DNA of 64,000 nucleotides from an uncultured beta proteobacterium (GTDB taxonomy: Bacteria > Pseudomonadota > Gammaproteobacteria > Burkholderiales > Gallionellaceae): contig OY968775.1 in assembly GCA_963695355.1 (NCBI GenBank), positions 71,983 through 135,982 of the forward strand, in the 5' to 3' direction. The notes beneath the pieces were generated by a model. That model searched no databases and had not been told where the DNA came from. It worked only from the letters and a program-made list of their open reading frames with translations. The position numbers were made by a program, and so were the translations under genes. Shown here in pieces: positions 44,453 through 61,007 of the stretch (its first letter is position 1; every line of letters begins with the position of its first letter).

Positions 44453-44543
44453 GGAGAGGTGGATGAGCGGTTTAAGTCGCACGCCTGGAAAGCGTGTTTG
44501 GGATAATATCCCAACGGGGGTTCGAATCCCCCCTTCTCCGCCA
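44453..44543 (+). tRNA. tRNA-Ser(GGA), long variable arm, encoded CCA
   Basis: GGAGAGG/CUUCUCC acceptor stem, CACGC-CU GGA AA-GCGUG anticodon arm, GGUUCGAAUCC T-loop, ends GCCA. Confidence 0.98.
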
Positions 44544-44547
44544 TAGA

Positions 44548-44569
44548 CGTTCGGAATTTTGTGATATAA
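44548..44569 (+). repeat. Left sub-terminal inverted repeat
   Basis: cgttcggaattttgtgatataa, exact reverse complement of 60815-60836. Confidence 0.97.
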
Positions 44570-44705
44570 AAGCTCGATTTCGAAAACATTCCGCCCAAGC
44601 CAATCCGCGCCCATCTTGTTGTTAATATAGGGATTATCAGAATATCTTCGCTGGATGCCGTAAATAATTAGATTCTAAAATACCTAAAATTTGGATCTGA
44701 AGCAG

Positions 44706-44789
44706 GCCTAACTTTCATACCCCAATTTCCTGCTGTATTGAATAGCAACTTTTTGGCAGCAATATTTTGCGATTAGCATTCTGTTAGGT
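44706..44789 (+). other. Possible degenerate integron attC site
   Basis: R'' gcctaac (44706-44712), R' gttaggt (44783-44789), internal tgctg/cagca pairing; L boxes poorly matched. Confidence 0.4.
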
Positions 44790-45140
44790 GCCATAAGCAG
44801 AGCTCACATTTCTTTCCAAAAGGAGACATTCGTTCCTGCCCGTACTATCATGTGCGAAGGTGTGTTCGATGATTTTAGTATTCAGTTTGTAGGTGTGCTA
44901 AAAATACTTAACCGATTTAAATGAAAATATAGATTCGGCATGAAGAAGTTTGAAGTTAGTAACCGCTATTTTATCAAGTATTAATTGAAAAATAACATAC
45001 ACCGAGTTCAAACTTCATAGTGCCGAAGCAATAGCTCCCTACACAGCTAATTTATTATCCACCTGTCTTGATAAAAGATTAGGTCTTTTATTGGGGCCTA
45101 TATTCGTTAGGCAGGGCTTCATCGAGAGAGGTATTAAATT

Positions 45141-45644
45141 TTGAGCATGGAAAGTGTTTTATCAATAATTGGTTCAATTGCTTCTATTGGTGGAGCAATT
45201 TGGGCATTTATTGAAGCTAAAAAATCTACGAATGCAGCAACTAAATCAGAACGACTTCGTGATGAACTTATCCATCGAAGAAAAATGGTAGAGGTATCAC
45301 AAGTGCATTCAGAGACAACTAGAGTTTTATCTGTTGTATCCAAAGTTGGGCCTTCTTGTAATGCAAAGCTTCTCAAAGGTGTTAACTGTGCTGATATCGC
45401 AAAAGAGGTAGAGGTATATGCAAGGTTTATCTTAGAACAAAGCGGGCATTTCACTGATTTTTTCGAAAATAAAGCCAAAGAACTTTGTGCTGATTTAAAA
45501 AACGATATTGAAGCTTTGTCCGAAGCTATCAGTTTTGAAGACAAAAAAAATTACGGCAAAAGCATCTACTATAAAATTCAGAATTTTGTGCCCGCAGTTA
45601 AACAGCTCTCAGATGAAAAGAAAGAGCGAGCATTAGAGCTATAA
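45141..45644 (+). CDS. Hypothetical protein with N-terminal TM helix (cassette-borne)
   Basis: 167-aa ORF starting 28 bp after a GTTAGGC core site (45106-45112). Confidence 0.8.
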   Translation: MSMESVLSIIGSIASIGGAIWAFIEAKKSTNAATKSERLRDELIHRRKMVEVSQVHSETTRVLSVVSKVGPSCNAKLLKGVNCADIAKEVEVYARFILEQSGHFTDFFENKAKELCADLKNDIEALSEAISFEDKKNYGKSIYYKIQNFVPAVKQLSDEKKERALEL

Positions 45645-45658
45645 ATTAAGGAGTTATC

Positions 45659-46216
45659 ATGAAATTGACAGATGGTGAAAAGTTAATTGTTCTTATGCTA
45701 AGCGAGCTTTATGAAAAGCTTGGTGTAAATGGCGAAATAGAACCTGATTTCATTAAATCAGCTATTTTTAGCGATCAACTTTGGGGTATAAAATGGAAAT
45801 ATAGTGGTATTCCATTCGAAGAGTCAGAAGACCCAGAAATTGTAAAAGAAGTGGTTGATATTCTCGATATGTGGAGTTTCATTGAACGCGCCTATAGCCA
45901 ATTAAATGAAGAACAAAAGACTAAATTAGAAGCTGATGTTCCCTATTTTGGTCAAGATCCGAAATTTGTCGGTTTCGATGGCAATAATGAATCTGAATAT
46001 ATGGGAACAGCTATGTTTTTAGTAAATGAACTGGAAAGGTTTCAAGAATTTAGTGGCCGCAGCTTCAATTGCCACTCTCAATCAATAGATGGGTATCTCA
46101 GAATGTTGAGCGCATTCGAACCAATTCGTAAAACATTATCAAACAAGCCGTTAAACCTTGAGCAGTTAACTACAATTTTAAAAGAAATAACCCATCCCAG
46201 TAGAAGACAAGCCTAA
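45659..46216 (+). CDS. YfbU-family protein (cassette-borne)
   Basis: MKLTDGEKLIVLML, EVVDILDMW..IE, F.GFDGNNE..Y....FLV....RF, N.HS....Y.RML; stop codon lies inside GCCTAAC. Confidence 0.8.
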   Translation: MKLTDGEKLIVLMLSELYEKLGVNGEIEPDFIKSAIFSDQLWGIKWKYSGIPFEESEDPEIVKEVVDILDMWSFIERAYSQLNEEQKTKLEADVPYFGQDPKFVGFDGNNESEYMGTAMFLVNELERFQEFSGRSFNCHSQSIDGYLRMLSAFEPIRKTLSNKPLNLEQLTTILKEITHPSRRQA

Positions 46217-46250
46217 CAAAGCGTTCGTTCGGATGCTAACTACGCTGCGG
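46211..46250 (+). other. Truncated integron attC site (5' half)
   Basis: gcctaacaaagcgttcgttcggatgctaactacgctgcg: R'' box overlapping the ORF stop and exactly complementary to GTTAGGC at 45106; the 3' half is missing. Confidence 0.7.
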
Positions 46251-46259
46251 TCTGCACTT

Positions 46260-46560
46260 TGGAAACGCTACTGACCGCAATGTGCTGCCATATTTTATCA
46301 ACGTCGCAGGAAAACTGAATGTTTCAGGCTGGGATGCGAAAGAGCGACAATTGAGTTTTTCCAAGAAGTGCCAGGCCATCTGTATGGAACTAAAGTTGGA
46401 CTTCAATCCTTCGGTTGAGCCAAACGCTACCGCCATTCGGCTATTCGATTTGCGCAATGAGCTTGCCCATCCAAAGATGGTCACCGAGTCACTGAACGAA
46501 TTAATATCCCAGCAAGAATATGAGCGCCGACAAACTGAATTGGGGGGGGATAAGCCATCC
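46260..46560 (+). pseudogene. HEPN-like protein fragment
   Basis: YFINVAGK...W...ER.LS...K followed by LRNELAHPK (Rx4H); no intact N-terminus. Confidence 0.5.
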
Positions 46561-46929
46561 ATTGAGGGAACAGCTCACTCCTCTTGCAGTAGATCAGCTT
46601 ATTCAGTCCACCGAGGCTTACCGCTTGATGAAACAGTCGCGATGCTTAACACACACAAACCCAACGAAGAACAATTAAAGATGTTGACGTTAGGAATGGA
46701 AATGTTTGTGGGTGTGCTGGGTAATGTTGTTTCAGGCGTTGGCGAAAATAGGCATTGATACCACCATTATTAAAGGTATTCGATCCAAGTTTTATTAAGT
46801 TTTCAGCAGATTCCGTTTTGCTAATTAATAGCCCAACGTTGTCAAAATTGTCAGCTACAATGCAAAAAATATTGTTCTCAGTAAACTTTTTTTGTATTTC
46901 TTAAGACCTAATACGGCGCAGTTTTAATT

Positions 46930-48756
46930 ATGATCCTTGCCAAAATCCCACCTGTGAAGAGTCCGAGCCTGCCTGGATTCTCTATTGATGCGAACGTCTG
47001 TCTAAACCCTGCCTGCGAAAATTTCGGTGTCTCAGGAGAAGACATCCATCTGCCGGAAATCGGTTATGAATATAAGGACAACGATGAGGTCTTAAGATAC
47101 AAATGTAAGCGCTGCGGCCAATCCCACTCAGCCTTTAGCAATACCAGCGTGTTAGAAACTTTTCATCGCTGTCTTCAGAACTCGATACCCTACGCAAGCT
47201 GCCCAAATCCAGAGTGTAAAAATCATTTTGTAAACCTGTTTGAGCACTACCATGACGACCCGAGAGATAAGCGCGAAAAGCTTTATCGCATAAATGTCTC
47301 TGATGATGCCAAGGAGTATTATCAGGCTCGATGTCGTAGTTGCAATAAAACCTTCACCTTGTCAAAACCACTCCGTCTGCATATCAGTGAACGCAGATTC
47401 TGGCAGAAGGACATGGGTTTCTTCATTAAAGCTATCGTTAACAGCTCCGGGCCATCCATTGTCATGAACCTGGCAGAGGTTCATGGCGATCTCTACTATT
47501 CCCAGCTAACGGCTGCTTCGAATGCGTTACTCAATTACAACAACTTTCATCTCATCAATCTCTTGAAGCCCTCCGTTGCTCCTAAACTAATGCGGATTTA
47601 CACAGACTGTATCGTTTGCAGCATCAAGATGCACCGCAATGACCAAAGAGTTCAACTGATGAAAATCATTGTGTCAACTACTGAACTAGATGGCCGCTCA
47701 CTGATCCTCGCGTTCCACCCTTTGTTCGATCAGCAAGACATTGACGACAACATTATTGCGAACGATCACAAACAGCCATTGGAGCTACGGCGATATGAAT
47801 ATCTGAAACATCCATTCAATACTAAAAGGGATGAGAAGAATCCATTGCCTCCAATCGGGGTCGGTGGATCCTTCATGGAGGATTCATATGCCTACATGGG
47901 ACATTTTTTGGTATTAAGGAAACTTCTTGCCAAGGTAGAGTCATTACAGTTCTATATGGACGGTGAAGCTTCCCTATACAATGCTGCATTGACGGCCTTT
48001 TCCGATCGCATCAAACCCAATCACAACAAATCCAAAAGAAGTAGCTGTGATATCGTCGTGAAGGTATTGGAGAAAGATAAAAAAGCAACCCAAAATTACT
48101 CTCAGGTGAGGGACCAGGCTAGAAAATCCTTTCGAAAAGTCCATGCCGATTCGAAGCCGCCCGATGCCTCTCAATTACGCCGATTTTTATTGAGCGAAGA
48201 GATGCAACGGGTGAATGAGTCCATCAAAAATAGCAACACCAATAAGAGCAGAAAATTATTTACAGAACCACTCTCCAGAATTTACACAGTAGCAACCAGC
48301 AGGGCCAACACGACCGGTAAAGATTTTTGGGTAACCGACCTACTTAATGGTAAATCAAACCCGCCAGCCAGAATTTTGTGGTTAACCCGAACGACCGAAC
48401 ATGCAAATACAGACCATGAGCTCGACTTGTATCACAACTGTTCGCTCTTTTACATTGATAGTATATTTGGAGCCTTCCGACAGCGCTCCTCGTTGGTAGC
48501 TCGGCCTCAATTAACGGCATCAGGCCAAAGGAGCTATAACAGCAATCCCGAGTTACCTATCAATCTGATCCAGGATTTCACCATCAACGTAGCGTACTGG
48601 AATTTCTTCCTGAAATATCGAAGTGTGCCGAAAGAAACCATTGCCTATGTGCATGGCCTAGTCAAAAAGAAAGAATCTCCGGAGTTCAAAGTGGCTTTCC
48701 AGACCAGATATACCTTTGATAATGCGAAAAGGATAACCAAATGGCTTGGTATTTGA
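46930..48756 (+). CDS. Large multi-Zn-ribbon RNase-H-fold transposase-like protein, paralogue A
   Basis: CLNPAC/CKRC and CPNPEC/CRSC Zn ribbons, helical HTH-like segment, acidic motifs IYTD, FYMDGE, YIDSIF, and C-terminal VAYWNF...TIAYVHGL, all collinear with paralogue B. Confidence 0.7.
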   Translation: MILAKIPPVKSPSLPGFSIDANVCLNPACENFGVSGEDIHLPEIGYEYKDNDEVLRYKCKRCGQSHSAFSNTSVLETFHRCLQNSIPYASCPNPECKNHFVNLFEHYHDDPRDKREKLYRINVSDDAKEYYQARCRSCNKTFTLSKPLRLHISERRFWQKDMGFFIKAIVNSSGPSIVMNLAEVHGDLYYSQLTAASNALLNYNNFHLINLLKPSVAPKLMRIYTDCIVCSIKMHRNDQRVQLMKIIVSTTELDGRSLILAFHPLFDQQDIDDNIIANDHKQPLELRRYEYLKHPFNTKRDEKNPLPPIGVGGSFMEDSYAYMGHFLVLRKLLAKVESLQFYMDGEASLYNAALTAFSDRIKPNHNKSKRSSCDIVVKVLEKDKKATQNYSQVRDQARKSFRKVHADSKPPDASQLRRFLLSEEMQRVNESIKNSNTNKSRKLFTEPLSRIYTVATSRANTTGKDFWVTDLLNGKSNPPARILWLTRTTEHANTDHELDLYHNCSLFYIDSIFGAFRQRSSLVARPQLTASGQRSYNSNPELPINLIQDFTINVAYWNFFLKYRSVPKETIAYVHGLVKKKESPEFKVAFQTRYTFDNAKRITKWLGI

Positions 48757-49526
48757 GCGAGGTCGTCACCGATCTCTCCCCTGTCGTGGAGATCCTCAAG
48801 CTATACGATCAGACCACCGGATCATTCCCCGATGAAGAAAATAACGATGATTACAAAAAACGCCTAGTCCCGTTATTACGCCAGGCCACGTTTAATACCG
48901 ACCACATTGAAGCCGATAGCATCCCGGCAGCCTATGAGAATGATGAGTACAAATGGCTGGCATCCGGCTACCACGACCTTATCCGCAAACTGGGGCTTGT
49001 TAAGCTTAGCGTCGATAAGCTTGAGCGTGAGCATGGGTACTCTTTAGAACTGACAGAAGCAGGAAGACAGGTTCTCAACCAGCAGCTCACCTTATCCGAA
49101 CTCATGAAGGCCGGGTTGCCTGAATGGAGAAACGATGCCGGAATCCACCCCTATCCGATCATCCTAAAGCTCTTGTCGAATTTAAAACAGAGCAATCTTT
49201 ACCCTTGTGGTGGCCTGTTGCTGCTGGAGGTAATGATCGTTTTATTGAAGCTCAACCAACCGCATGGACACATTATCAATCTCTATGACCATATCCAGGA
49301 ATATAGAAAAGGGTTTTATCCTTACATGACTGGTGAGGTTCAAGTCGATCTGATCAACTATTCAGGTTTACTCTGGGAGAAGCTGAGCCAGGACTTATCC
49401 AACTACCATGCTGCCAATTACCCGGCTCGGGCAACATTGCAACTGATGATGTACGCGGGCGATTTAGCCTATGGCCCGGTACCCGATGAGATCTTTGGTC
49501 AGGTTCAGTACGTCACCATCGCCTAA
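48741..49526 (+). CDS. Putative AlwI-family restriction-endonuclease-like DNA-recognition (winged-helix) subunit
   Basis: LIRKLGLV...LELTEAGRQVL and IHPY.IILKLL.NL...LLLLEV resemble the AlwI-family N-terminal domain; overlaps paralogue A by 16 bp. Confidence 0.5.
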   Translation: MAWYLSEVVTDLSPVVEILKLYDQTTGSFPDEENNDDYKKRLVPLLRQATFNTDHIEADSIPAAYENDEYKWLASGYHDLIRKLGLVKLSVDKLEREHGYSLELTEAGRQVLNQQLTLSELMKAGLPEWRNDAGIHPYPIILKLLSNLKQSNLYPCGGLLLLEVMIVLLKLNQPHGHIINLYDHIQEYRKGFYPYMTGEVQVDLINYSGLLWEKLSQDLSNYHAANYPARATLQLMMYAGDLAYGPVPDEIFGQVQYVTIA

Positions 49527-49541
49527 TACGAGTCATTCATC

Positions 49542-50390
49542 ATGGTTGAAAACAACAAAACCATCGCCATCGGTACAGATAAAGATCCCTATAAGGTACC
49601 GCTGAACCTAAAACAGTTGTCGATATATATGCAATACATTATTCCGAATTCAAAGCGTGAAATGAAAGATATATTCGGTAAATTTGATCTCGATTCAGCT
49701 TCACGCAGAAAACAGCTGAACACCATCGACTTTAAAACCGATGCGGGTGAACGCATGACATTGCAGAAAATCAACAAAGGGCTCACGATGGAATTGTTCG
49801 CTAGCGGAATGTTCAGCTACTTCGATCATCCCTCAGAAGTGCATTCAAACTGTGTCGCAAATCGATATCACCCTCAAGGTGCAGTTGATAAGAACCAATA
49901 CCAAGTAGTGCCAAAAAATTATGCACCAGGGGGTATGCCGGATGTGCAGATTGACTATACGAATTTCATGGTGATGTTAGAGGTCAGTGCCAAGGAGAAG
50001 CCAACCTTAGGAGATTTGAGTAAACAATTTAACGGTGCATTAAAGCACGCACGCACAATCCGCGAAGATGGATATGATAAGCCTATCTATTGCCTAGTGA
50101 TCCACGAGCGCTCTTTGATGGAAACGAAAAATAAAACCGCGCTGAAAGAAGTCCTGGAAGTGATCAATCCATCAGAGCAGATCTATATCACCGCGATATC
50201 GATATTGGAATTTGCGGGTTTGGGGCAAGTGATGGCAGATACATACGAGAATGCCATTTCCATAATACAGAACGACAATTTACTTAGTGTCCTCAAGGCA
50301 ACCGTTGAAAAGGGTGTTGAGGGTAAGTTTCATGACGAATTCGTTAAATGCCTGAAAGACCTTAAACCCAAAGCTGCTCATGAATGGTGA
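49542..50390 (+). CDS. PD-(D/E)XK nuclease, AlwI/FokI-like catalytic subunit
   Basis: PKNYAPGGMPDVQI..Y...MLEVS...KH...YCLVI matches the AlwI-family pattern APGG.PD...EV; no methyltransferase nearby. Confidence 0.6.
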   Translation: MVENNKTIAIGTDKDPYKVPLNLKQLSIYMQYIIPNSKREMKDIFGKFDLDSASRRKQLNTIDFKTDAGERMTLQKINKGLTMELFASGMFSYFDHPSEVHSNCVANRYHPQGAVDKNQYQVVPKNYAPGGMPDVQIDYTNFMVMLEVSAKEKPTLGDLSKQFNGALKHARTIREDGYDKPIYCLVIHERSLMETKNKTALKEVLEVINPSEQIYITAISILEFAGLGQVMADTYENAISIIQNDNLLSVLKATVEKGVEGKFHDEFVKCLKDLKPKAAHEW

Positions 50391-50419
50391 CTTTGGAAGT
50401 TTGTGTGTGGATGTGACTG

Positions 50420-50748
50420 GAAGCATATTCCACTCGTTTTGAGATTTTCGACAGATTTTCGGCCTTAGCTGACGTGACTGGCTGGCTCATGTAGGTGTAA
50501 AGACAGCCTACATCACACCTGGCAGTCCATGGGAGAACGGTGACTGTGAAAGCTTCAACGGCACATTGCGTAATGAGTTGCTTGATGGAGATATCTTCTA
50601 TGGTGTCAAAGAAGCGCAGGTGTTGGTTGATCAGTGGGTCAGGCATTACAACACCACCAGGCCGCACAGTTCGTTGGGTTACAAGCCTCCTGCGCCAGAG
50701 GCTATCATCAACATGAACATACAAAATTTACACTCGGTGATGCACTGA
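50420..50748 (+). pseudogene. IS3-family transposase 3' remnant
   Basis: GVKTAYITPGSPWENGDCESFNGTLRNELLD...W..HYNT.RPHSSLGY.PP. Confidence 0.9.
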
Positions 50749-50905
50749 AGTATGATACAAATACTCTCACTTCAAGTGGTACTAAATTTGACGCAGTTCA
50801 TGACTTCAGCAACGAGCACCACCATGTCCGCAAAGCATAACGTAACTCTGTCAGGGGTTGGCAACCGTACCTTCGGGCGAAAGGTGTGAATGCAGGACTT
50901 AACGC

Positions 50906-53083
50906 CTACGTCGATAAATACAATCGCCACTGTTGAATTACTGATGCGGTCACTGCATCGCTCAACCATACTGCTTGTTGAAGAATTTTAGTATTCTCAT
51001 CATTGGGTAACTTTGGATTACATAATTGCTTGCACATATCCAGCAAGTTTTTATAGGGTATCGGACTTTTGCTGAATAGCGTGTTATGTCGATACAACCC
51101 TAACTCTTTTAACTGAGTGTTGAGAAGGGCTGCATAGATGTATTTTGAATAGCTTAAATTCAGCTCCATATTGACGTATTCACGAAACACGTCTGCCTCA
51201 ACGATGACATTTTCTACATTTAAAATCTCACGAATAACCTGCATGACGGCATCTGTGTCGATATTGCTAAAGGCTTTTTCAGTTGTGGTGTAAACCATTT
51301 TATCAACGCGAACCACTTTGCCTTCTTGCATCAAATTGCTGATATAAAATCCGGCATGACCTAAACTTTTGCTTTTCAATCGCTCAGCTATTTCCTGCTT
51401 AGTCATGGCTACTGTGGATTCATTAAGCACTTTTATGATGACATCGGCTTGGGTGATACGTTTTGAATCTGGATCAAGGCTTATGCTATCCGAACCTGAT
51501 TTGCCATCAAAGTAAAGTCCGTAATCTTCGCCATACTCTCTGACAAGATGGCGCAAAGTGAAGTACTCTATTTCGCTGCGTTGCCCTTTGGTTTGATAGT
51601 AATAGTCGTGCAAATGCGAAGCTGTTATTTGTTTTCGCTTAAAGTAATCAATCAGATGTTGCATGATTTCAGGGATGTCAAACTGCTCAAGGTCAAGAAA
51701 TATCAGATTTCGATAAGTTCCTTTGCCGCATAAATAAATATATTCGGAATCATTGAACCCATGAGTTGATCTAGTCTCATCTATTTGTGTTGATGCGCAC
51801 CCTTTTACATTTACTATTTTGGCAATATCTTTCCATGGCAATCCTTCGGGATGAGAAGTTAAGATATGAGCCACGGCCTTGCCTCTAGCAAGTTTCATTG
51901 GATAAATGCCTTGTTCAGTTACTTTAATGTTATGGGATTTCTCTAATTGGTTTATGCCGTGTATTGCTGATGCCTTGTCGTACCCATAATTCGACATCAA
52001 TTCATTGATGATAATTTCTTCGGCGACAGGGGAAGGCATAGAGCAGAACAGCGAGTCTATAATTTCAGTATGAATCTTGGTGAAAATTATCTTGCTAATG
52101 CTGCCTGTTTCAACTTGGCAACATAATTCAATAAGAGCGTAGAACAGCTTCTCTGTGGCAAAACATTTGGCTAATTTAGGCAATAACACCGTTAAATCTT
52201 CAATCATTCTTGCACGGATATTTGCCCATAATATTTTGGGTGGTATCGTCAAACGAAAAGGAAGATTGGCATTGATAGGCTGCTCAATTTGGCGTATCCG
52301 CTCTCTGGTTAGTGGCTTACCCTCGGTATTTTTATATCGACCTGCAACTTCCTCAAGCGTTTCATGTTGGTGATTGAATCCCCAGCGCGAAAGCGCAATA
52401 TCCGTTTTCATTTCATCCAATGTCCATAAATAGCTTTCAATGTCTTCAATGAGTACGTTATCTATCTCTTTAAATTCAATTAAGTTTAATGAGGTAAATT
52501 TTTCCGACTGCTCAAATAAAAGGTTGGGCAATTGTTTTTGCAATTTAATTAAACTTAAAGCATACAACTTGCCCACAGAAGGTAATTCAGCAAAGTGAGA
52601 CGAATCGAGATTAATGAGGTCTTGAACCGTGACTAAGTCGCCCACTGAAGCAGAAATTTTTCTTATGAGTTCTTGATATTGTGTTGGGAATACCACTTGC
52701 GCCAGATGAGTTTCTAGTTGTGCTAGTGAAAGTGTAATTTGAGGGGGTAATTCAAACGCGGCAGGCATCGTGCTTAAAGCATTTTCCTTGATATCAGAAC
52801 CTGGTTTGACTGTTGAGGCATTCATGTCAAGTGACAAGCCAATCTTGCCAAGACAGAGCTCGATTTCCCGCAGCGACTTAAGGCCTAAATTCTGGGCTTG
52901 CAGCAAACTATTTCTAGTGCATTGAACCAGATCTCGGATGTAATGAATATTTTGTTTCTTGAGGCAATTGTATGGGCGCGGTGGGAGATTCAGATTCTCA
53001 ATGGGGCGCTGAAAAATTGCGTCATTCTTACTAGATAAAAGCACTTGTCCATATTCCGAAGTATCCATTTCATTCATTTTCAT
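50906..53083 (-). CDS. RNAP alpha-CTD / sigma70 region-4 / multi-wHTH protein
   Basis: IENLNLPPRPYNCLKKQNIHYIRDLV...NLGLKSLREI (alpha-CTD), a second degenerate copy, and TLEEVAG...TRERIRQIE (sigma70 r4 HTH). Confidence 0.8.
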   Translation of the reverse strand: MKMNEMDTSEYGQVLLSSKNDAIFQRPIENLNLPPRPYNCLKKQNIHYIRDLVQCTRNSLLQAQNLGLKSLREIELCLGKIGLSLDMNASTVKPGSDIKENALSTMPAAFELPPQITLSLAQLETHLAQVVFPTQYQELIRKISASVGDLVTVQDLINLDSSHFAELPSVGKLYALSLIKLQKQLPNLLFEQSEKFTSLNLIEFKEIDNVLIEDIESYLWTLDEMKTDIALSRWGFNHQHETLEEVAGRYKNTEGKPLTRERIRQIEQPINANLPFRLTIPPKILWANIRARMIEDLTVLLPKLAKCFATEKLFYALIELCCQVETGSISKIIFTKIHTEIIDSLFCSMPSPVAEEIIINELMSNYGYDKASAIHGINQLEKSHNIKVTEQGIYPMKLARGKAVAHILTSHPEGLPWKDIAKIVNVKGCASTQIDETRSTHGFNDSEYIYLCGKGTYRNLIFLDLEQFDIPEIMQHLIDYFKRKQITASHLHDYYYQTKGQRSEIEYFTLRHLVREYGEDYGLYFDGKSGSDSISLDPDSKRITQADVIIKVLNESTVAMTKQEIAERLKSKSLGHAGFYISNLMQEGKVVRVDKMVYTTTEKAFSNIDTDAVMQVIREILNVENVIVEADVFREYVNMELNLSYSKYIYAALLNTQLKELGLYRHNTLFSKSPIPYKNLLDMCKQLCNPKLPNDENTKILQQAVWLSDAVTASVIQQWRLYLST

Positions 53084-55395
53084 TGTCCTGAATTATTTCT
53101 GTTCTTTTGCAGACAACTGAGAAAACGAAATTCTGAACTAAATACACGTTTAATTTCTGCTCTACCTTCGGCGGGTAGTTTTAATAAATCCTGCCTCGTC
53201 TTAATAATATTCAGATACTTTTCAATGAGCAAGGACTCTTCATTAATTTCGGCAATTTTTGAGATATTTGTCGGCGATACCTCAAGGGGTGCTGTGATGG
53301 CTTGTTGATTTAATTGAACGGAATTTATGGATAAAAAATTTCCTAATTCACTTTCATTACCCAACAAAAACTCGACCTCGGCTTCCGAGCAAGCAAGCAA
53401 ACCGTTATGTTGCTTAGCAAGGCTAATCGCTCTAAAACTTGGGCAGATGCGATTTTTTTGATAAAAGTTCTGCGCGTAATCCAAGCATATTTTACGAAAC
53501 ATACCTTGATCGTATTGCCCAATTAATGCGGCTTCCAGATAGCCAAAATACGAGTCAAAATGCGTAGCGATTTGGTCGGCAGTAACATCAGTCGAAATAC
53601 TTTCGATTTCATTCAGTTTGGGGATATGGTTGTTGTCCTCATAGTATCTTCGCAGCACCTCAATCACCTGCATTCGTGACTTCAAGCGATATTGCAGCTC
53701 TTCAATAAGTTGCAAAACTTGCGCGGCAGATTGGCTATAGCTCACTTCCAACGAAGAGTTATGCACGGTTTCCTTTTTATCGCGTGGCTCCCAATTTTCT
53801 TTTTCAATGGGTACGCGATTTACTCTTTTGCTGAGTTGGTGTACTTCGTTTAGCCGTTCCAATGAACCCACAAAATCTAATACATGAACGTAATCTTTGT
53901 TGGGTGTTTTGCGCAGTCCTCTGCCTAGTTGTTGCAGCCAGATCGTATGCGACCCCGTGTAACGCATAAAAACTAGCAGATTAGTTTCTGGAATATCAAT
54001 GCCTTCGTTGAATAAATCTCGTACCAAAATGTAACGATAATTCCCCTCACGGAAATCACGGATATTTTGCCAGCGTTGTGAATCACTCATTTGAGAATGT
54101 ACAAAGGTCGCGCTGCCTGGCGGGAAAAACTGAATCAGGTAAGTAATGTGTTGAATATTGCGGCAAAAGACAATCCCCTTGAGATTGCAGATTTGTTTTT
54201 CTTGTACGGTTTTTTCTATGATGCGGACAACTTCTTCGTCCTTTTTATGCAAGAACAGACGTTGGTCTAAATCGCTAATCGACATGCCATGATTCAGTTG
54301 GTCTATACGCGATTGATCCAAGTCATCAAGCAAAACCAAATACTTTGGAAATGCCAGTTTGTTATGACGCAATGCCCAAGCTAAATCATACTTGCCCACA
54401 TGACCTGCCGCACCACCAAAAAATGCTAGTACGTCTTTGTTATCCTCACGAAACGGTGTTGCGGTCAGGCCTATCAATAATTTTGGATGAAAATGCTCGA
54501 CGACTGTGGCATAAGTTCTGGCTGGGGTGTGATGAGCTTCATCAACCACTATCACGTCAAAAGTTTCCTTTTCCAGCGTGGCGATTTTGCTAAATAGCGT
54601 ATCGAAACTGCCAAACACAAAATCAGTTTGCTCTGGGTTTGCACCATCAAAACAGGCCGAAAATGAGTAAGTGCCAATACCCAAAACGTTTTTGAAGGCA
54701 GTAACCGATTGCAACAGTATTTCGACCTGATGCGCCAAGAACAGCACACGCTTAACTTTGCCCTGTTGCAATATCTGTTTTAGCAAATGGGCAACGGTAT
54801 AGGTTTTACCTAACCCTGTTGCCATTTCTATTAACAAACGATTATGCCCTGCATTAAAGCGCGTCAAGCTGTCCTGAATAACGGTTTCTTGGTATGTTCT
54901 GGGCTTGATATCCCGTCCGATTTCTGATTGCTTCTCAATCCACAAATTCTGCAAACTGTCACGATCAAGTAGCTCAACTCCAAGTCTTAACGCTCTTACT
55001 TTCACCTCGGAAGTAAAATAAGAATTTGTCACTAAAATCATGTTGACGACATTAGCGAGCTTTGCGCCCGTGACCAATTGATTTAATGCGCTTACGTCAA
55101 CTGTATCTCCGGCTTGCCTTTGCTTGACTTCAATCGCAAATTTTCGTTTGCTTTTATAGGCGAAAATATCAACACCACCATCACCATGCTTAAACTCCTT
55201 CCCTACTTTGGTAATAATTGCATCGCTCCAGCCAGCAGCCACAAAAACATCCCGGACGTAAATTTCAAAATCGGATGGAGATAGTTTATCTATCAGTTTG
55301 AATTCTGATAAAGCGGCTTTGTTCAGTGGCGGGCAAACACGATTTGTGTTGACATGATGTTTTCCACCGCCGACTTGTTTTTTGCCTGTTTTCAT
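53080..55395 (-). CDS. Mrr-family endonuclease fused to SF2 (ResIII/DEAH) helicase
   Basis: DFE.YV..VF...GDGGVD...IEVKQ...VTNS.FT (Mrr_cat); MATGLGKT, VDEAHH, GLTATP, FNEGIDIP, QQLGRGLR. Confidence 0.88.
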   Translation of the reverse strand: MKTGKKQVGGGKHHVNTNRVCPPLNKAALSEFKLIDKLSPSDFEIYVRDVFVAAGWSDAIITKVGKEFKHGDGGVDIFAYKSKRKFAIEVKQRQAGDTVDVSALNQLVTGAKLANVVNMILVTNSYFTSEVKVRALRLGVELLDRDSLQNLWIEKQSEIGRDIKPRTYQETVIQDSLTRFNAGHNRLLIEMATGLGKTYTVAHLLKQILQQGKVKRVLFLAHQVEILLQSVTAFKNVLGIGTYSFSACFDGANPEQTDFVFGSFDTLFSKIATLEKETFDVIVVDEAHHTPARTYATVVEHFHPKLLIGLTATPFREDNKDVLAFFGGAAGHVGKYDLAWALRHNKLAFPKYLVLLDDLDQSRIDQLNHGMSISDLDQRLFLHKKDEEVVRIIEKTVQEKQICNLKGIVFCRNIQHITYLIQFFPPGSATFVHSQMSDSQRWQNIRDFREGNYRYILVRDLFNEGIDIPETNLLVFMRYTGSHTIWLQQLGRGLRKTPNKDYVHVLDFVGSLERLNEVHQLSKRVNRVPIEKENWEPRDKKETVHNSSLEVSYSQSAAQVLQLIEELQYRLKSRMQVIEVLRRYYEDNNHIPKLNEIESISTDVTADQIATHFDSYFGYLEAALIGQYDQGMFRKICLDYAQNFYQKNRICPSFRAISLAKQHNGLLACSEAEVEFLLGNESELGNFLSINSVQLNQQAITAPLEVSPTNISKIAEINEESLLIEKYLNIIKTRQDLLKLPAEGRAEIKRVFSSEFRFLSCLQKNRNNSGQ

Positions 55396-55955
55396 TATTT
55401 CAGTGAAGAAGATGAAGTTGTAAAATTGAAAGCAAGTCTATAGCACTAGTGATATAGGTGTCGATAATTAGTGGCTTCACATATTGCAATCGATTCCTTC
55501 CATCTGCACAGGTTGCGGAGCGTTTAGTTGTTCGACATCGCAGCTAACACGTGAAAGTCATCCCACTCTCCTATCGAATGCATCTTATTCGCACTAATGG
55601 CATCTTTCAGGATGACTTGCTACAAGGGTCGACAATCCGCCAGTAGGTCGGGTGGCGAGCCTCTCCATTATCAGTTATTCCTCAAGCTGATTAAACTGCT
55701 TCAAAAATAATTCAATGACTACTTTGTAGAAGGGAGTATGAGCAAGCCTACAGCACTACAGCAATATATAAATGTCATTTACGGAACTTCAACTTGTTAT
55801 TTCATTTATTTTACGGCACGATTCTGTGATGAGAACGATTTTTCTATATTGTCATCAGTGAAAGAAATACGTAATGGTAAATTTCACCCCACCTACGGAA
55901 ATTGACGCTTCACAGCATAACTGCCTGCGCCCCTCACTTCAAAGTTAAATCCCAG

Positions 55956-56780
55956 ATGGCGATCCACCAACTCGATCTATTAGAGAATGCACTCGACAGC
56001 CTAGCTGAAGCACTGGCGAAGTTCGAAGAGGGCGATGCGGGAGAATCAAAGGCATACAAGTTCGCCATTTTACATATGGCGCACTTTATTGAACTTATTT
56101 TCAAACATCACATAGCACAAAAGCATCCGCTATTGATTTACAAGGATCCATTCGCGCAAAAGGTCGATAAGAACAAAACCATTACCCTTTGGGATGCGGT
56201 GAATTTTATCAACAACGAGGCGACAGACACAGTTTCTGCTGAGTTTCGTACCAACTTGGAATGGCTGAAGCGACTAAGAAACGAAATCGAACACCACAAA
56301 TTCACAATGGATGTGCCACAGGTGCGCATCACGTTGGGAAGACTGTTCCGATCAGTGCTTGAATTTCTTGAAAACTATAGCGGTGTTGAGATCGAATCTC
56401 ATATTCCCGACAACACAATGGATTCTTTCAAGGTGCTTTCTGACGAGTATGAGTTCCGACGACGCGATGCCATCCGTAAAGCAGAAGAAGTCGAAAAAGC
56501 AAACACATCAGACCACACTTCGGGCGAAGACGAGTCACCTGTGAGGCTTGATTGTCCCAATTGTGAGAACCCAACTCTGGTTATCAATGATGACTCTGAT
56601 ACGGGCTATCGTTGCACATTCTGCGAGAACGAAGATAGTGACGAGTTGCCCGCATGGTGCGACATTTGTAGCGTCCAAACCATCCATGGTGAACTCGTAT
56701 TTTGGGAAAGCGAGGCTGGTCAAACTGAAGGCCGCTGCTATTACTGCTCAGGTAGATACCGTGCTGAAAAAGATGACTAA
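55956..56780 (+). CDS. HEPN-like protein with C-terminal Zn ribbons
   Basis: AILHMAHFIELIFKH, LRNEIEHH (Rx4H), CPNC/CTFC/CDIC/CYYC; likely ATG at 55956. Confidence 0.65.
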   Translation: MAIHQLDLLENALDSLAEALAKFEEGDAGESKAYKFAILHMAHFIELIFKHHIAQKHPLLIYKDPFAQKVDKNKTITLWDAVNFINNEATDTVSAEFRTNLEWLKRLRNEIEHHKFTMDVPQVRITLGRLFRSVLEFLENYSGVEIESHIPDNTMDSFKVLSDEYEFRRRDAIRKAEEVEKANTSDHTSGEDESPVRLDCPNCENPTLVINDDSDTGYRCTFCENEDSDELPAWCDICSVQTIHGELVFWESEAGQTEGRCYYCSGRYRAEKDD

Positions 56781-56863
56781 ACTTTGGTCTAGCATGGTAT
56801 GTGCGAAAAGTCGCGCAGGCATGGTTGATTCTAAAGCCAGATTTCATAACATGAGCTGAGCTA

Positions 56864-57769
56864 ATGATTACAGAAAAATTGTATATTATTGGAAACGGTT
56901 TCGACATTTATCACGGGATACCATCGCGGTATACGGACTTTCGAACATATCTTGAACAGAGCGACCGGTCACTTTGTCAGAAGCTTGAGAACTACTTCAG
57001 TTACGAAGGATTATGGGCGGACTTTGAACAATCGCTGGCTGATTTCGATGCTGACAGATTGATTGAGGATGCGTCAAATTTTCTTGTTTCCTATGGGTCA
57101 GACGATTGGAGCGATTCATATCACCATGATTTTCAGTATGAGATTAATGAAGTGGTTGTCGCTTTATCACAGACATTGAAATTAAAGTTTGCGGAGTGGA
57201 TTGCACAACTACCAATCCCATCCGAGTTGGATATTAAAAATAAAAAGCTCGGTTGCATTGACAAAAATTCGACATTTTTGTCGTTCAACTATACAAACAC
57301 CCTTCAGGCAGCCTACTTAGTTTCAGACAGCCATGTGCTTCATATTCACATGAAATATCTAGTAAATGGCCCAGATTTAGTGCTGGGGCACGCTTGGAAG
57401 CCGGTCAAAAGAAATGCGTTAATGCATCAAGATGATCTTGAGCGGCAAGATGTCCGCATTGCCGAAGGCGACAAGATAATTGATAGATACTTCAAGACAA
57501 CCTACAAGCCAACGGAAGAAATTATAAAATTAAATGGCGAATACTTTGCGAGCTTGCGCCGAACAAAAGAAATTTATGTACTTGGGCACTCGATGTCGTG
57601 CGTTGACATTCCATACTTTCAAGAGATTGTGAGATCAATTGATGCGCGAAACACGAAGTGGTACATAAGCTACTTTGATGAGAAAGAGTTAGCAAGTCAT
57701 CAAGGAGCAATGAATGCCCTTGGCATTAGAGCAGAGTTGATAAATTTTTCTGACTTAAAGAGTATTTGA
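56864..57769 (+). CDS. abiH: AbiH-family (SIR2-like) abortive infection protein
   Basis: LYIIGNGFDIYHG..SRY.DF, FLSFNYT.TL, HIH...LGH, YVLGHSM..VD..YF. Confidence 0.85.
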   Translation: MITEKLYIIGNGFDIYHGIPSRYTDFRTYLEQSDRSLCQKLENYFSYEGLWADFEQSLADFDADRLIEDASNFLVSYGSDDWSDSYHHDFQYEINEVVVALSQTLKLKFAEWIAQLPIPSELDIKNKKLGCIDKNSTFLSFNYTNTLQAAYLVSDSHVLHIHMKYLVNGPDLVLGHAWKPVKRNALMHQDDLERQDVRIAEGDKIIDRYFKTTYKPTEEIIKLNGEYFASLRRTKEIYVLGHSMSCVDIPYFQEIVRSIDARNTKWYISYFDEKELASHQGAMNALGIRAELINFSDLKSI

Positions 57770-58040
57770 GTGAGTGTCTAAAGCGGGGAAAAGGTGTGTG
57801 ATTGGTTTTTATAAAGAAAATAGCCAGCCCGCAATTATACTGCCAGCTTTCCAGCTAAATAATTTTAGAGCAGTGAAGTGGGCAACTGCACTAATGAAGG
57901 CGATTGAGGACGCAAACGCAAAATGATAGATAGCGACTTCTGGGTTGCGCACATTGTCCAGCATTGAACAAAGAGGCCTTTGATAAAAACTCTGAATATA
58001 GGAGAATGAGGAATTGGCGAATAGCAACAAACATTAATTA

Positions 58041-58577
58041 ATGATAGCTTGGGAAGCATTTAAATATCGGGGAGTCGAGTACGATTTAACTCATCTTCAC
58101 CCATGCCGTCTCCAGTATATTCAATCGGAAAAATCTGGTCAGCCAGAAAGAAGATATATCGTTGAAGTCTGCTACAGCTTGCACTGCTTTACAAAAACAT
58201 TTTCAACCGCAGCAGACCCACATCTTAACTATAGTGATGCAAGAGAGACTCGAACTTTTGATCTTGAAAGATACGAATTATCTAAACAACTACCGCAAAT
58301 CATCCAAGACCTGAGTTCTAAAAGATGTATGCATACGGGAAAGGGAAATTTCTTTGTGGTTGAAGTTGTTACTTCAAGCGGTGCTAAAGAAGATTACGAG
58401 GTGTATTTTGATGTCCAGAATTCAAGTGCCAAGGGAATGATTGCACGCCTCTTTGTACAAAGTGCTTATGTCAGAGATGAAAAGCATATCAACAGATTAG
58501 CCGCCACCAAAAAAATATCGCTGTTTGTGATTCTGAATAATAAGCAAACAGGAAAGCCGATTAAAATGCCGCAGTAG
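58041..58577 (+). CDS. Hypothetical protein, putative RNase toxin (BECR-like, tentative)
   Basis: 178-aa ORF with YDLTHLHP, HCFT, R.FD.ERYELSKQLP and RLFVQSAY; faces a convergent structured RNA. Confidence 0.6.
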   Translation: MIAWEAFKYRGVEYDLTHLHPCRLQYIQSEKSGQPERRYIVEVCYSLHCFTKTFSTAADPHLNYSDARETRTFDLERYELSKQLPQIIQDLSSKRCMHTGKGNFFVVEVVTSSGAKEDYEVYFDVQNSSAKGMIARLFVQSAYVRDEKHINRLAATKKISLFVILNNKQTGKPIKMPQ

Positions 58578-58579
58578 AA

Positions 58580-58710
58580 ACGGTTAAGGCTCCTTACGGA
58601 GCCTTAACTTTGATACTAACCGAACCTCTTAGAATATCTGCACTTGGGCGGAAACCATTTCTGGCGGGATCACTGCACGGCTTTCACCGCATTCGGTTTA
58701 TACAATGACA
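58580..58710 (-). ncRNA. Putative ~130-nt structured RNA (candidate RNA antitoxin)
   Basis: Enclosing stem AACCGAA/UUCGGUU, hairpins GCGGU-GAAA-GCCGU and CCA-GAAA-UGG, upstream sigma70 promoter, downstream terminator. Confidence 0.6.
58583..58608. terminator. Hairpin terminator shared by the convergent ORF and RNA
   Basis: Perfect 11-bp stem gttaaggctcc-ttac-ggagccttaac with short T/A tracts on both sides. Confidence 0.8.
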
Positions 58711-58715
58711 TGGGC

Positions 58716-58744
58716 AATATATTCCTAAATGACGAACCCGTCAA
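58716..58744 (-). promoter_or_regulatory. Sigma70 promoter driving the putative RNA
   Basis: Minus strand TTGACG (58744-58739), 17-bp spacer, TATATT (58721-58716); no ORF follows before the terminator. Confidence 0.7.
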
Positions 58745-58856
58745 TATCTATTCCGCCATCACAATCTGACCGTACCGTCGTGTGAATTGACTGTTGTTGG
58801 CGACGATTGGAGGGTAATCTCAAGCGTGTTGGCACCCTTAGTACGCTTGACCGCAG

Positions 58857-60737
58857 TTATAAGCGCATTCCTTTCCTACGTTTTCTGGGTGCTCTCGGTA
58901 TCTTCTGTCCGGGCCACAACACATCATCGTAATGCAAAGGTTTATTAGTTAGCCCAAGCCGCATAGCTGGCGTCATTTTGTCATCATCACTGATCTTGAT
59001 GAAATTATGATAAACCCGAAGCAGACTCAGATATTGCTCCACCATCTTTGGATTGTAGGGTGCGTAACCGTGCCAGACCGTGTTGTAGCCGCTTGAAGTG
59101 CCAATCGGGCGCTCAAATGCATTTATCAATCGCCTCGAAATTTGAAAAATATTATCCACGGCATTGATGCCTGCATCGAGGTACATCTGTGCCCTGGTCA
59201 AATCGTCATAGTCATTGTCGCTTCGCTCAGTTAACCAGCATATAGCTTTATCCGGTTCGTTCATTGACGGAAGAGGATGGGTCACCCATTTATCCTTCCA
59301 TTTACCAATGTTCGCTGCCCCTACTATGTTGTCGTGCATCAACCATAATTTAGCCTGATCCCGTTTGTTTGCGGGTAAATTGGACGAGTAGTCTGACAGG
59401 ATCTGTTGTGCCTTTTCACACCGACCCTCTTTATCTGGAGTGGTCAGGAATTTCGAATAGCGAACATAGAAACCGTGGGCTTGACCAGATTTGATTTCTT
59501 TTTCAAATGCCGAGATAAATCCGGCCCTGAGCATGGAATCGCAATCCATGTAATAGAATAATTTCTCTACCCCTGCCCCCTTGACCAGCATATGCATCAT
59601 TTGAAAATGGGCATAGCTGGTATACGGCACATGAACTTGCATGCCTTTGGTCAAGATGGGATTGCAGTAATCCAAATCCATATTTTGTTGCTCACGATTC
59701 TCAACATCCTTGCGAGATTGTGCTGCAACATAAACATCATTGATCTGTTGCAAGATATCCTGAGCCTTTGTTAAACCGAGTCGCTGACCAAGCTTGCGGC
59801 CAGCCAGAAACTCATCACAAGTCATCCAATATTGTGCGTGCTGTCTAAATGCTTCCGGTCTCAACGCGTCACCGTTCATCGAGGCTTCTTTGTTGATCGT
59901 GTAGGAATCGGCATCCTTATCGTAGTTTGCACACATGCCAAGGATAAAGCGGCTATCCTGATCAACCGTACACACAGTTGAAAATTCAGCGTTACGCCGA
60001 TCATGCTTATTAGTCCAGTTGAGTTGATACTCCTGGACATCGACTGATAGCCTGAGGGTTTTGGGAAGCAATATCTCACCATTGATCATACGTCGGTCAA
60101 ACAATCCTGATAATTGGTTGCAGCGACGATGGACAAAATCGAGTAAAGAGTAATAGTTTTCATTGCTTTGGATAGACATCCCCCTGATAGCGCATCGAAC
60201 TGGGGATTTGTTGGCGACACGGCTGAATAAATCCGATGCCATATGCCTGTTCTTTGGATGAATACGAACTGGTTGTGAAGCCAACATCCGTTTCTTGCAA
60301 GCCTTGCATACATATAGCTGCTCTCCGGTGACCGAGTGAACCCCTGCCCTACTGTAAAGCTCAGGATACTCACCAACAGTACATCCGCAATTCGGACATC
60401 CAACCGTCTTGCACGCGAGTAATTCGGTCGTCGTAAGCACTGAATGGGTGATGCGCTCAAATTCAGCGGATATACCGGTATTGGATTTGATTGGAATCTT
60501 CTCGTTGCATGACTTACACAGGATGGCCGGAATACGACCTTCTGATGTGTTTGTTACTTTGTAATGAGTATCGCGATCGGGGCTCGGGCCAGGTTTACCA
60601 GGCTGTTCTCTGGCAGGGATACCAAAGTTATCACATTGAGGGTTTTTGCAAAAATTGACCTGCAGTGGCATGGCCGGACTGGCCCCCAATTTCAGTTGGG
60701 AGGTCGGCGGAATACGAAAATTTGTTGGCTGAACCAT
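58857..60737 (-). CDS. Large multi-Zn-ribbon RNase-H-fold transposase-like protein, paralogue B
   Basis: NFCKNPQC/CKSC and CKTVGC/CKAC Zn ribbons, HTH-like segment, LSVD, YYMDCD, NAVDNIF..SRR, VYHNF...MTPAMRLGL (IS1-like tail); starts 77 bp inside the right IR. Confidence 0.75.
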   Translation of the reverse strand: MVQPTNFRIPPTSQLKLGASPAMPLQVNFCKNPQCDNFGIPAREQPGKPGPSPDRDTHYKVTNTSEGRIPAILCKSCNEKIPIKSNTGISAEFERITHSVLTTTELLACKTVGCPNCGCTVGEYPELYSRAGVHSVTGEQLYVCKACKKRMLASQPVRIHPKNRHMASDLFSRVANKSPVRCAIRGMSIQSNENYYSLLDFVHRRCNQLSGLFDRRMINGEILLPKTLRLSVDVQEYQLNWTNKHDRRNAEFSTVCTVDQDSRFILGMCANYDKDADSYTINKEASMNGDALRPEAFRQHAQYWMTCDEFLAGRKLGQRLGLTKAQDILQQINDVYVAAQSRKDVENREQQNMDLDYCNPILTKGMQVHVPYTSYAHFQMMHMLVKGAGVEKLFYYMDCDSMLRAGFISAFEKEIKSGQAHGFYVRYSKFLTTPDKEGRCEKAQQILSDYSSNLPANKRDQAKLWLMHDNIVGAANIGKWKDKWVTHPLPSMNEPDKAICWLTERSDNDYDDLTRAQMYLDAGINAVDNIFQISRRLINAFERPIGTSSGYNTVWHGYAPYNPKMVEQYLSLLRVYHNFIKISDDDKMTPAMRLGLTNKPLHYDDVLWPGQKIPRAPRKRRKGMRL

Positions 60738-60814
60738 AATTATCTCGACTTTTCACATTTAAGTGGAAATATTAAAAGCATGTAACATACTGCTTGCTTT
60801 ACATATTTTAGTCA

Positions 60815-60836
60815 TTATATCACAAAATTCCGAACG
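60815..60836 (-). repeat. Right sub-terminal inverted repeat
   Basis: ttatatcacaaaattccgaacg, followed by ggtag and the ttctccgcca duplicate. Confidence 0.97.
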
Positions 60837-60851
60837 GGTAGTTCTCCGCCA

Positions 60852-60957
60852 AATCAATCACTTATGATTATTATAAGTAATCATAAGTAACTGCAAAACA
60901 CCAAAAATAACAGCTTTAGTCTGACCGTTTCCTGACCGTTTTACAAACTCGGTCAGG
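60852..60957. repeat. Putative left end (att region) of an older integrative element
   Basis: 11-7-11 dyad acttatgatta/taatcataagt (60860-60888); direct repeats ctgaccgttt at 60921 and 60932 with an inverted cggtcag at 60950. Confidence 0.5.
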
Positions 60958-61007
60958 AAAAATTTTTCTTTTCAGTCAATAGACAGGCTGCCAACGTTAA
61001 CCAAGAT

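Follow-up and report, generated by a model that had tools for sequence, protein, structure and literature searches.

How does an island come to lie flush against the 3' end of a tRNA gene when it brings no integrase with it? The usual explanation for islands at tRNA genes is an integrase, and integrase-driven tRNA islands carry their recombinase gene at one end. Transposition by DDE-type enzymes that is aimed at tRNA genes is known to us in bacteria only from Tn7-like elements, which find them with TniQ or CRISPR guides. The question is raised by a stretch of 64,000 nucleotides of contig OY968775.1, from an uncultured member of the Gallionellaceae (the whole stretch is called the window here), in which 16.3 kb of DNA bounded by inverted repeats (IRs) follow directly on a tRNA-Ser gene and lack any such recombinase gene. 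We put at about 0.85 the probability that this DNA is a transposon of an uncharacterised RNase-H-fold (D-D-D/E) family which targets the ends of tRNA-Ser genes, and which carries a three-gene module, B-C-D, and anti-phage cargo. The sequences argue for a cargo transposon with site-specific insertion whose transposase is of a different family, one that has not been named.

The only tRNA gene that ARAGORN finds in the window is tRNA-Ser(GGA), at 44453-44543 on the forward strand. The element proper starts with the base immediately 3' of its CCA and occupies 44544-60841 (16,298 bp). The final 10 nt of the tRNA, TTCTCCGCCA (44534-44543, forward strand), are repeated directly beyond the far end of the element (60842-60851, forward strand), and these are the only two occurrences of that word in the window, against 0.11 expected. 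An initial annotation, made from the letters of the sequence, had correctly placed the start after the CCA and the end before the second repeat, but its limits, 44534-60851, took in both duplications. The sequence right after the CCA reads TAGA-CGTTCGGAATTTTGTGATATAA and the far end reads TTATATCACAAAATTCCGAACG-GGTAG-TTCTCCGCCA. The 22-bp IRs, CGTTCGGAATTTTGTGATATAA, at 44548-44569 and 60815-60836 are 100% complementary, and both they and the tips are as the initial annotation described them. With the tips, which are asymmetric (TAGN on the left, NNTAG on the right), the left terminus spans 44544-44569 on the forward strand and the right terminus 60815-60841 on the reverse strand. Homologous left ends, TAGG-CGTTCGGAATTTTGTGATAAAA, adjoin tRNA-Ser genes in the relatives L156 and L158. 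A 20-mer of the IR, with up to three mismatches allowed, is found in the window only at the two terminal sites (0.03 expected), and the 22-mer occurs just twice in the whole 3.14-Mb genome. The G+C content is 40-45% within the element and 48-50% outside it.

The empty site was sought by joining the two flanks of the window and querying 41 genomes of the same family with the joined sequence. In a genome of another genus (G405), the joined flanks align without a gap across the junction, over 228 bp at 83% identity and for 90 bp past the CCA, with the 10-bp word in single copy. Two genomes of the same genus read tRNA...CCA followed by AATCAATGAG, as compared with AATCAATCAC in the right flank of the window. 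In these related genomes tRNA-Ser(GGA) is joined directly to what is here the right flank, and because they show the site uninterrupted, the extra DNA consists of the 16.3 kb and one copy of the 10-bp word. The tRNA gene is intact after the insertion, as had been supposed, its end rebuilt by the 10-bp duplication. The element is apparently intact as well: all four of its core open reading frames (ORFs) are full-length and its IRs are perfect.

What moved it? When its ORFs of at least 70 amino acids (aa) were compared with domain models, none matched a tyrosine or serine recombinase, TnsC or TniQ, and the claim that these are missing has stood. The ORF next to the right end, gene A (58857-60737, reverse strand), starts 78 bp inside the right repeat and encodes a protein of 626 aa (P0001) that belongs to no Pfam, NCBIfam or PHROG family and has no PDB relative by sequence. 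It is laid out as an N-terminal double zinc ribbon and helix-turn-helix (HTH), followed by an RNase-H-fold core with an inserted domain. For its AlphaFold2 model (89-sequence alignment; predicted local distance difference test, pLDDT, 85; predicted template-modelling score, pTM, 0.89) the best PDB folds in Foldseek are the transposases of Tn5 (probability 0.98) and ISCth4 (0.97-0.98), then TnsB, MuA and Transib, with TnsB structures at 0.35 or less. D233, D398 and R535 are invariant and D528 is present in 87 of 88 A sequences. D233 lies on strand 227-238, D398 ends strand 392-397 and D528-x6-R535 falls in helix 525-537, so that D233, D398 and D528 are the likely triad, as expected for a D-D-D/E layout. 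The protein also has eight invariant or near-invariant cysteines in four CxxC-type pairs, and helices 161-218 precede the first catalytic strand. On the model, its Foldseek matches, 110 homologues and the conserved residues, A can confidently be predicted to be an RNase-H-fold transposase of an undescribed family that is only remotely related to IS1; no prior description of this family was found in the literature searched.

The initial annotation had spoken of two IS1-like transposase paralogues. The paralogy is borne out (below), but the term "IS1-like" is fair only at the superfamily level, because it is only far relatives that match an IS1 model or bear such an annotation, and the matches are below threshold. 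Neither P0001 nor P0002, the product of gene B, matches the NCBIfam IS1 model (NF033558). Relatives at 30-34% identity score 29-41 bits against its cut-off of 100 (E 1e-10), over model positions 7-139 only, and this match covers the zinc-ribbon/HTH/first-strand part; zinc-domain models of IS1/IS1595 also match A relatives below threshold (E 2e-6 to 1e-4). Very distant relatives of about 650 aa, at 22-25% identity, are annotated "insertion element protein; transpos_IS1 superfamily" (in L172 and in 89 Enterococcus plasmid records); the one in L172 (OP328421.1, a Staphylococcus phage record; 25% identity) adjoins the trimethoprim-resistance gene dfrG. A profile search with the A family through 1.84 billion cluster representatives (50% identity) returned 619 at E <= 1e-30 and 1,615 at E <= 1e-10. 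In annotated plasmids A homologues are labelled "hypothetical protein", and one of these, 34% identical, lies on an IncP megaplasmid of Pseudomonas aeruginosa (L173, CP136985.1), a few kb from a GES-1/aac(6') integron region.

The case for a chosen target comes from the relatives of A. Genome contigs were scanned for them with two peptide patterns, which yielded just five loci, and the homologues were surveyed for paired IRs, duplications of about 10 bp and adjacency to tRNA genes, with a positive outcome. The suggestion that a DDE-type element selects tRNA 3' ends is supported by this comparison: elements whose A proteins are 44-91% identical lie at the same nucleotide of tRNA-Ser genes, of four isoacceptors. 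Three complete ABCD-type elements abut tRNA-Ser there. One is that of the window. The second (L156+L013) leads from tRNA-Ser(GCU) into TAGG-IR and ends in IR-CCTAG, next to TTCTCCGCCA; the third (L158+L011), of about 42.7 kb, leads from tRNA-Ser(GGA) into TAGG-IR and ends in IR-GGTAG, again next to TTCTCCGCCA. (The second lies between tRNA-Ser(GCU) and tRNA-Arg(ACG), downstream of alaS-csrA, at L013:2542-2618 and L156:9732-9821. Since this looks like the inside of a tRNA operon, the element may separate the downstream tRNA from its promoter.)

Upstream of A, the close relatives, at 68-91% identity (L006, L011, L013, L089, L090/L133 and L138), share the layout TGGCGGAGA(A/G)-CTA(C/G)(C/G)-CGTTCGG..TTTGTGATATAA, followed by unrelated sequence; the right-end counterpart in L065 is TGGCGAAGAG. 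The CTA(C/G)(C/G)-CGTTCGG ends are found upstream of A in L006, L011, L013, L016, L089, L090 and L138, the 10-bp end of tRNA-Ser is borne by seven further right-end junctions of the close clade, and TGGCG(G/A)AGAG by the five of L006, L089, L090/L133, L138 and L065. A scan of metagenomes with CGTTCGNNNNTTTGTGWTATA proved too loose and was set aside: most of its 120 matches came from one unrelated gut-bacterium locus, and about nine were genuine ends. Within the clade at 44-51% identity, L162 abuts tRNA-Ser(CGA), L170 abuts a tRNA-Ser-like remnant, and L169 is a compact A-B-C-D element beside tRNA-Ser(CGA), in which the A gene lies at least about 6.7 kb away from the tRNA junction. In none of the relatives were these ends seen to enclose an integrase. 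Orientation is constant within each subclade, and in a maximum-likelihood tree the A proteins associated with tRNA-Ser all form a single clade (support 0.999), separate from the clade described below that inserts into hairpin loops.

Three long-read contigs in ENA (L163, L164 and L165) contain arrays of a 2.5-2.8-kb unit that encodes A only, with four to six copies in each. The copies are of two alternating subtypes, exactly 10 bp, CTCTCCGCCA, lie between each pair, and the innermost copy abuts tRNA-Ser(GCU) or tRNA-Ser(UGA). Such tandem arrays are what is expected of an insertion target that regenerates itself. Metagenome contig L133, from the same region as L090, contains at 1-3380 a 3.37-kb derivative (IRs at 5-26 and 3347-3368, then GCTAG and CTCTCCGCCA) with a single gene, for a secreted protein of 921 aa. 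As it has no transposase gene, it is non-autonomous and presumably mobilised in trans.

Is the 10-bp word copied from the target, or is it the core of an attachment site? The initial annotation had allowed for the second, with the joined ends acting as an attP-like circle junction. Two sets of relatives speak against this. L160, a decayed 8.7-kb copy in a metagenome-assembled genome of Thiodiazotropha, carries IS91 and IS4 insertions and lies at a site that is not a tRNA gene, with ACTTAATATA on both sides (10 of 10 positions). Relatives at 28-36% identity, which have a single transposase and cognate but different IRs of the CCGTTCAGTAAAGGTGTTGATAAA type, are flanked by 9-bp duplications, TTATTTAGC in L007, GCCGATCGG in L010 and TTATCACAA in G269. 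Because these elements have other duplications, the TTCTCCGCCA repeat is a target-site duplication and not an att core, which implies that the family transposes; the terminal IRs, moreover, co-vary with the transposase clade. By these sequence comparisons the repeat is copied from the target. The L007, L010 and G269 insertions (L007:9873-18122; L010:9921-14652; G269:C1:1187459-1199748, also L154/L155) each lie in the loop of a terminator-like palindrome, and this branch seems to recognise its target by DNA structure. The ends of the G269 element might be taken for a 52-bp repeat; this was rejected, the outer 24 bp being the two halves of the palindromic target, split by the 9-bp duplication.

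The initial annotation saw two large paralogues. The core includes two further conserved genes (48741-49526 and 49542-50390) as well. Gene B (46930-48756, forward strand; P0002, 608 aa) is a distant paralogue of A (22-25% identity, E 5e-9). Its 31 homologues are found only on contigs that also carry A homologues, and 25 of 25 sequences keep all eight zinc-ribbon cysteines and the equivalents of D233, D398, D528 and R535; Q235, N240, W241, D273, E494 and E542, invariant in A, are lost. In the tree, B sits on a long branch as the sister group of those A proteins that target tRNA genes. Gene C (48741-49526, forward strand; P0144, 261 aa) is a conserved core protein whose counterparts in L156, L158 and L160, 60-66% identical, follow B directly. 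Gene D (49542-50390, forward strand; P0145, 282 aa) encodes, by profile and fold, a PD-(D/E)XK nuclease of the kind found in the cleavage domain of the type IIS enzyme N.BspD6I: its profile matches N.BspD6I in the PDB (E 1.1e-4), with PD...E-V-S-A-K aligned to PD...E-V-T-T-S-K, and the top nine Foldseek matches of its AlphaFold2 model are all large or small subunits of BspD6I (probability 1.00, E 5e-7). E84, P133-D134 and E147-V-S149 are invariant and K151 nearly so. The 48 homologues of D lie on short metagenome contigs, several of which are shared with A or B homologues. The left ends of L156, L158, L160 and L169 share the synteny of B-C-D: about 155 bp separate the left repeat from the start of B, and C (about 260 aa) and D (about 282 aa) come next. 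In L006 and L013 the synteny is partial. The elements of the hairpin clade have no B, C or D. We propose, with moderate confidence, that the B-C-D operon makes a heteromeric transposase. TnsA of Tn7 is a restriction-fold nuclease that cuts the 5' strands; if D played a similar part, B-C-D would convert a reaction that nicks only 3' strands to cut-and-paste for long elements.

These components suggest how the system might work. A would bind the 22-27-bp terminal IRs through its zinc-ribbon/HTH N-terminus and join the ends to the target with the 10-bp stagger that the duplications show. The target of the tRNA-associated A clade is the last 10 bp of tRNA-Ser genes, that is, the 3' strand of the acceptor stem, the discriminator G and CCA. 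Its conserved part is (C/T)(C/T)CTCCG and three bases; an encoded CCA is not required, because L162 has TCA there and L169 likewise has no CCA. The tRNA gene survives because the duplication rebuilds its 3' end, and since the target thereby persists, reinsertion in tandem is allowed. The specificity would reside in A: because A-only copies use the same target, A is most simply the selector, and the second paralogue is not needed for it. The larger elements add the B-C-D operon at the left end, where D would cut the 5' strands and so permit cut-and-paste of long, cargo-laden elements; the variable anti-phage cargo sits between the two core modules. A more ambitious picture, of a convergent and unrelated counterpart of Tn7, can be offered only tentatively, and we would sooner bet against it than for it. 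In this picture a protein-only safe-harbour system of single-nucleotide precision would have a D-D-D transposase of the IS1 superfamily that reads the tRNA-Ser end and, in the larger elements, works as a heteromer with a catalytic B, an adaptor C and a type-IIS-like nickase D that lacks a recognition domain and shifts the reaction to cut-and-paste. As hairpin loops are what the sister clade reads, the family may have passed from reading structure to reading sequence.

Three quite different accounts of the site must be set against transposition by a target-selecting A. The first would have it that this is site-specific recombination, by a tyrosine or serine recombinase that acts in trans or has been lost, with a 10-bp core common to attP and the tRNA and with the joined ends in the role of attP. 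Integrase-driven islands classically sit at tRNA 3' ends (the tRNA-Ser islands of Vibrio cholerae, of the pathogenicity-island kind known as VPI-2, are an example), the flanking repeat does equal the end of the tRNA, and other islands occupy the same tRNA in related genomes. We nevertheless give this account almost no credence. No element ORF has a recombinase domain, the perfect terminal IRs follow the transposase clade, A-only elements build tandem arrays at the same site, and the 9-bp repeats of distant relatives vary in sequence; L160, at another site and with a different 10-bp repeat, largely refutes it. That insertion is nearly random, with selection sparing only the harmless sites just after tRNA-Ser genes, would fit the off-site copies L160 and L016 and the use of other sites by the more distant clade. 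It is very improbable in the face of more than 10 independent junctions at the same nucleotide, with the same 10-bp duplication, in four isoacceptors and in different neighbourhoods. The constant orientation in each subclade and array spacers of exactly 10 bp tell against it too, and single-nucleotide precision at one type of tRNA is beyond what selection explains. Equally little can be said for an RNA guide encoded by the element, of the sort that IS110/IS1111 and CRISPR-associated transposons use. The tRNA-proximal end does have non-coding stretches (about 0.4-0.6 kb) that could house one, but in the non-coding parts of the window element and of one array unit no segment of at least 8 nt is identical or complementary to the 3' region of tRNA-Ser, the element has no cas or TnpB gene, and we know of no RNA guidance for this type of transposase. 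We regard this account as hardly credible.

The place of B-C-D is less settled. A might be the sole transposition protein, with B-C-D a conserved passenger (for instance a nuclease module for defence or addiction, with a domesticated transposase paralogue as its guide) or the remnant of a second element. A-only elements do reach the same target, D has a restriction-enzyme fold and a weak PADLOC match to HEC-02B, the rest of the island is defence cargo, and B in the window lies 2.4 kb from the end and not adjacent to it. This is unlikely on balance, yet it deserves to be taken seriously. Against it, the position and orientation of B-C-D just inside the left end are fixed in L156, L158, L160 and L169 while all other cargo differs, homologues of B, C and D are found only on contigs of this element family, B retains the putative triad and all eight cysteines, and B is sister to the tRNA-targeting A clade.

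Several points weigh against the transposon reading itself, or against parts of it. The relatives are mostly metagenome contigs, and just three ABCD-type elements have been seen with both ends. Adjacency to a tRNA-Ser end is not universal in the close clade: the right flank of L016 is a different sequence, and the flanks of L126, L129 and L103 are ambiguous. The A gene is tRNA-proximal in L162 and L170, so that orientation differs across the clade. Should the element begin with the A of CCA, its duplication would be 9 bp and not 10. Despite the probability of 0.98, the Foldseek matches of A have weak E-values, none better than 4e-3, and the triad of A was assigned from conservation and secondary structure and not from model coordinates. 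C matches nothing in Pfam, the PDB or PADLOC, even with a small profile, and the heteromeric transposase is argued from synteny and analogy. Of the public sequencing runs that were screened, none contains the element; only tRNA words matched.

How does such an element compare with known systems? With the IS1 family it shares the N-terminal zinc ribbon and HTH and the RNase-H-fold core, IRs of similar length (22-27 bp; about 23 bp in IS1) and similar duplications (9-10 bp; 8-10 bp in IS1). In contrast to IS1, A is about 2.7 times longer, is encoded in one ORF without a frameshift and has a large inserted domain. IS1 elements are about 0.8 kb long and make InsA/InsAB' by -1 frameshifting, while A elements measure 2.5 to about 43 kb. 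IS1 ends begin GGT..., as against TAGN-CGTTCGG here, where the likely triad is D-D-D. Site- and orientation-specific insertion, cargo of up to about 43 kb and the extra core genes B-C-D also set the A elements apart from IS1. Tn7 and Tn7-like elements, among them the tRNA-targeting TniQ variants and type V-K CRISPR-associated transposons, resemble them in their defence-rich cargo, in their fixed orientation and in the use of a safe site beside a conserved gene, sometimes a tRNA gene, that is left functional. They also encode a nuclease of restriction-endonuclease fold beside the transposase, of which D may be the analogue (TnsA). Unlike those elements, this one has among its ORFs no rve/Mu-type TnsB, no TnsC AAA+ protein, no TniQ/TnsD and no CRISPR component. 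The Tn7-like duplication is 5 bp instead of 10 bp, and tRNA-targeting Tn7-like elements insert downstream of the tRNA, not at its very 3' end. Specificity here, as the A-only relatives suggest, appears to reside in the transposase itself.

Members of the IS3 family insert in repetitive extragenic palindromic (REP) sequences. The IS1202 group inserts site-specifically at dif (PMC10132070). Insertion directed by protein, in one orientation and at a conserved chromosomal motif, is common to these site-specific insertion sequences and the present element; the transposase family, the target and the large cargo carried here are different. Casposons, too, have IRs and a target duplication and insert at tRNA 3' ends without a tyrosine or serine recombinase, and target recognition by the casposase has been studied (PMC6614799). 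They rely on a Cas1 integrase and a family B polymerase and duplicate about 14-15 bp of their target; this element shows none of these features (no Cas1 match). As to D, the nickases N.BspD6I and N.BstNBI share its cleavage-domain fold and the motif PD...E-V-(S/T)-x-x-K. It is closest to the catalytic domain of the BspD6I large subunit and to the small subunit, which has no DNA-recognition domain of its own. Unlike N.BspD6I, D has neither a recognition domain nor a methyltransferase partner, and lies in an operon with a transposase paralogue inside the end of a transposon. The family would reach the same kind of safe site as Tn7-like elements with apparently one protein, and spread defence genes in doing so. 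It would explain integrase-less islands at tRNA-Ser genes, could serve as a new annotation marker for mobile defence islands and is a compact candidate for site-specific DNA insertion. Its hairpin- and tRNA-targeting clades and the optional B-C-D offer a natural series for studying the evolution of target choice and of cut-and-paste.

The prediction of anti-phage cargo has held up. Between the two core modules, where cargo varies among elements, the window has an AbiH abortive-infection protein (56864-57769, forward strand; Pfam AbiH, E 3e-68; also AbiH in PADLOC), an Mrr_cat nuclease fused to a ResIII/Helicase_C helicase, resembling type IV methyl-directed restriction endonucleases (53080-55395, reverse strand; PADLOC mREase_IV, E 2e-52), and a DUF3644/PDC-S64 candidate defence protein (55902-56780, forward strand). 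Next to them are genes for a 725-aa protein that combines an RNA polymerase alpha-CTD domain with a segment resembling sigma-70 region 4 (50906-53083, reverse strand) and for a 178-aa YjaZ-like protein (58041-58577, forward strand; NCBIfam PRK09717, E 2e-15, below cut-off). The defence cargo of relatives includes RES-Xre, Abi_C, AAA_15/21, SNIPE nucleases and an Eco57I-like methylase with XamI. The window also has 2.2 kb inserted between the left leader and B; the segment at 45141-46758 (forward strand), with ORFs of 167, 185 (YfbU-like) and 158 aa, is absent in relatives and is probably cargo.

Some smaller features of the ends and flanks may be added. The left subterminal leader (44570-44690, forward strand) is partly conserved, at positions 1-37 and about 101-139 from the tip, when the leaders of L156, L158 and L160 are compared with the window by blastn. 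IR-core-like words in left-end orientation occur inside the element in 45570-45599 and at 50392-50405, TTCAGAATTTTGTG (13 of 14) and TTTGGAAGTTTGTG (12 of 14). As ends of nested elements they (45577-45590 and 50392-50405) were dropped, having neither a tip nor the TATAA part; they are probably due to chance, or alternatively are internal transposase-binding sites. The DNA to the right of the insertion (60852-60960) contains a palindrome, TTATGATTATTATAAGTAATCATAA, and a direct repeat, CTGACCGTTTCCTGACCGTTT. The empty site of G405 also has the repeat (CTGACCGTTTCCTGACCATTT), and the region of the palindrome is conserved there too, though more loosely, so that both are the host's and not the element's. 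The motif CAGTATGTTA (60783-60792, reverse strand) lies about 50 bp inward of the right tip; the aligned right ends of six elements give its family consensus, CAATA(A/G)GTTA, found at the same offset in L006, L011, L013, L016 and L089. The ends of IS1 bind integration host factor (IHF), and the motif may be a binding site for a host factor of that kind or a promoter element. The version in L006 and L089, TATCAATAGGTTA, agrees with the IHF consensus WATCAANNNNTTR.

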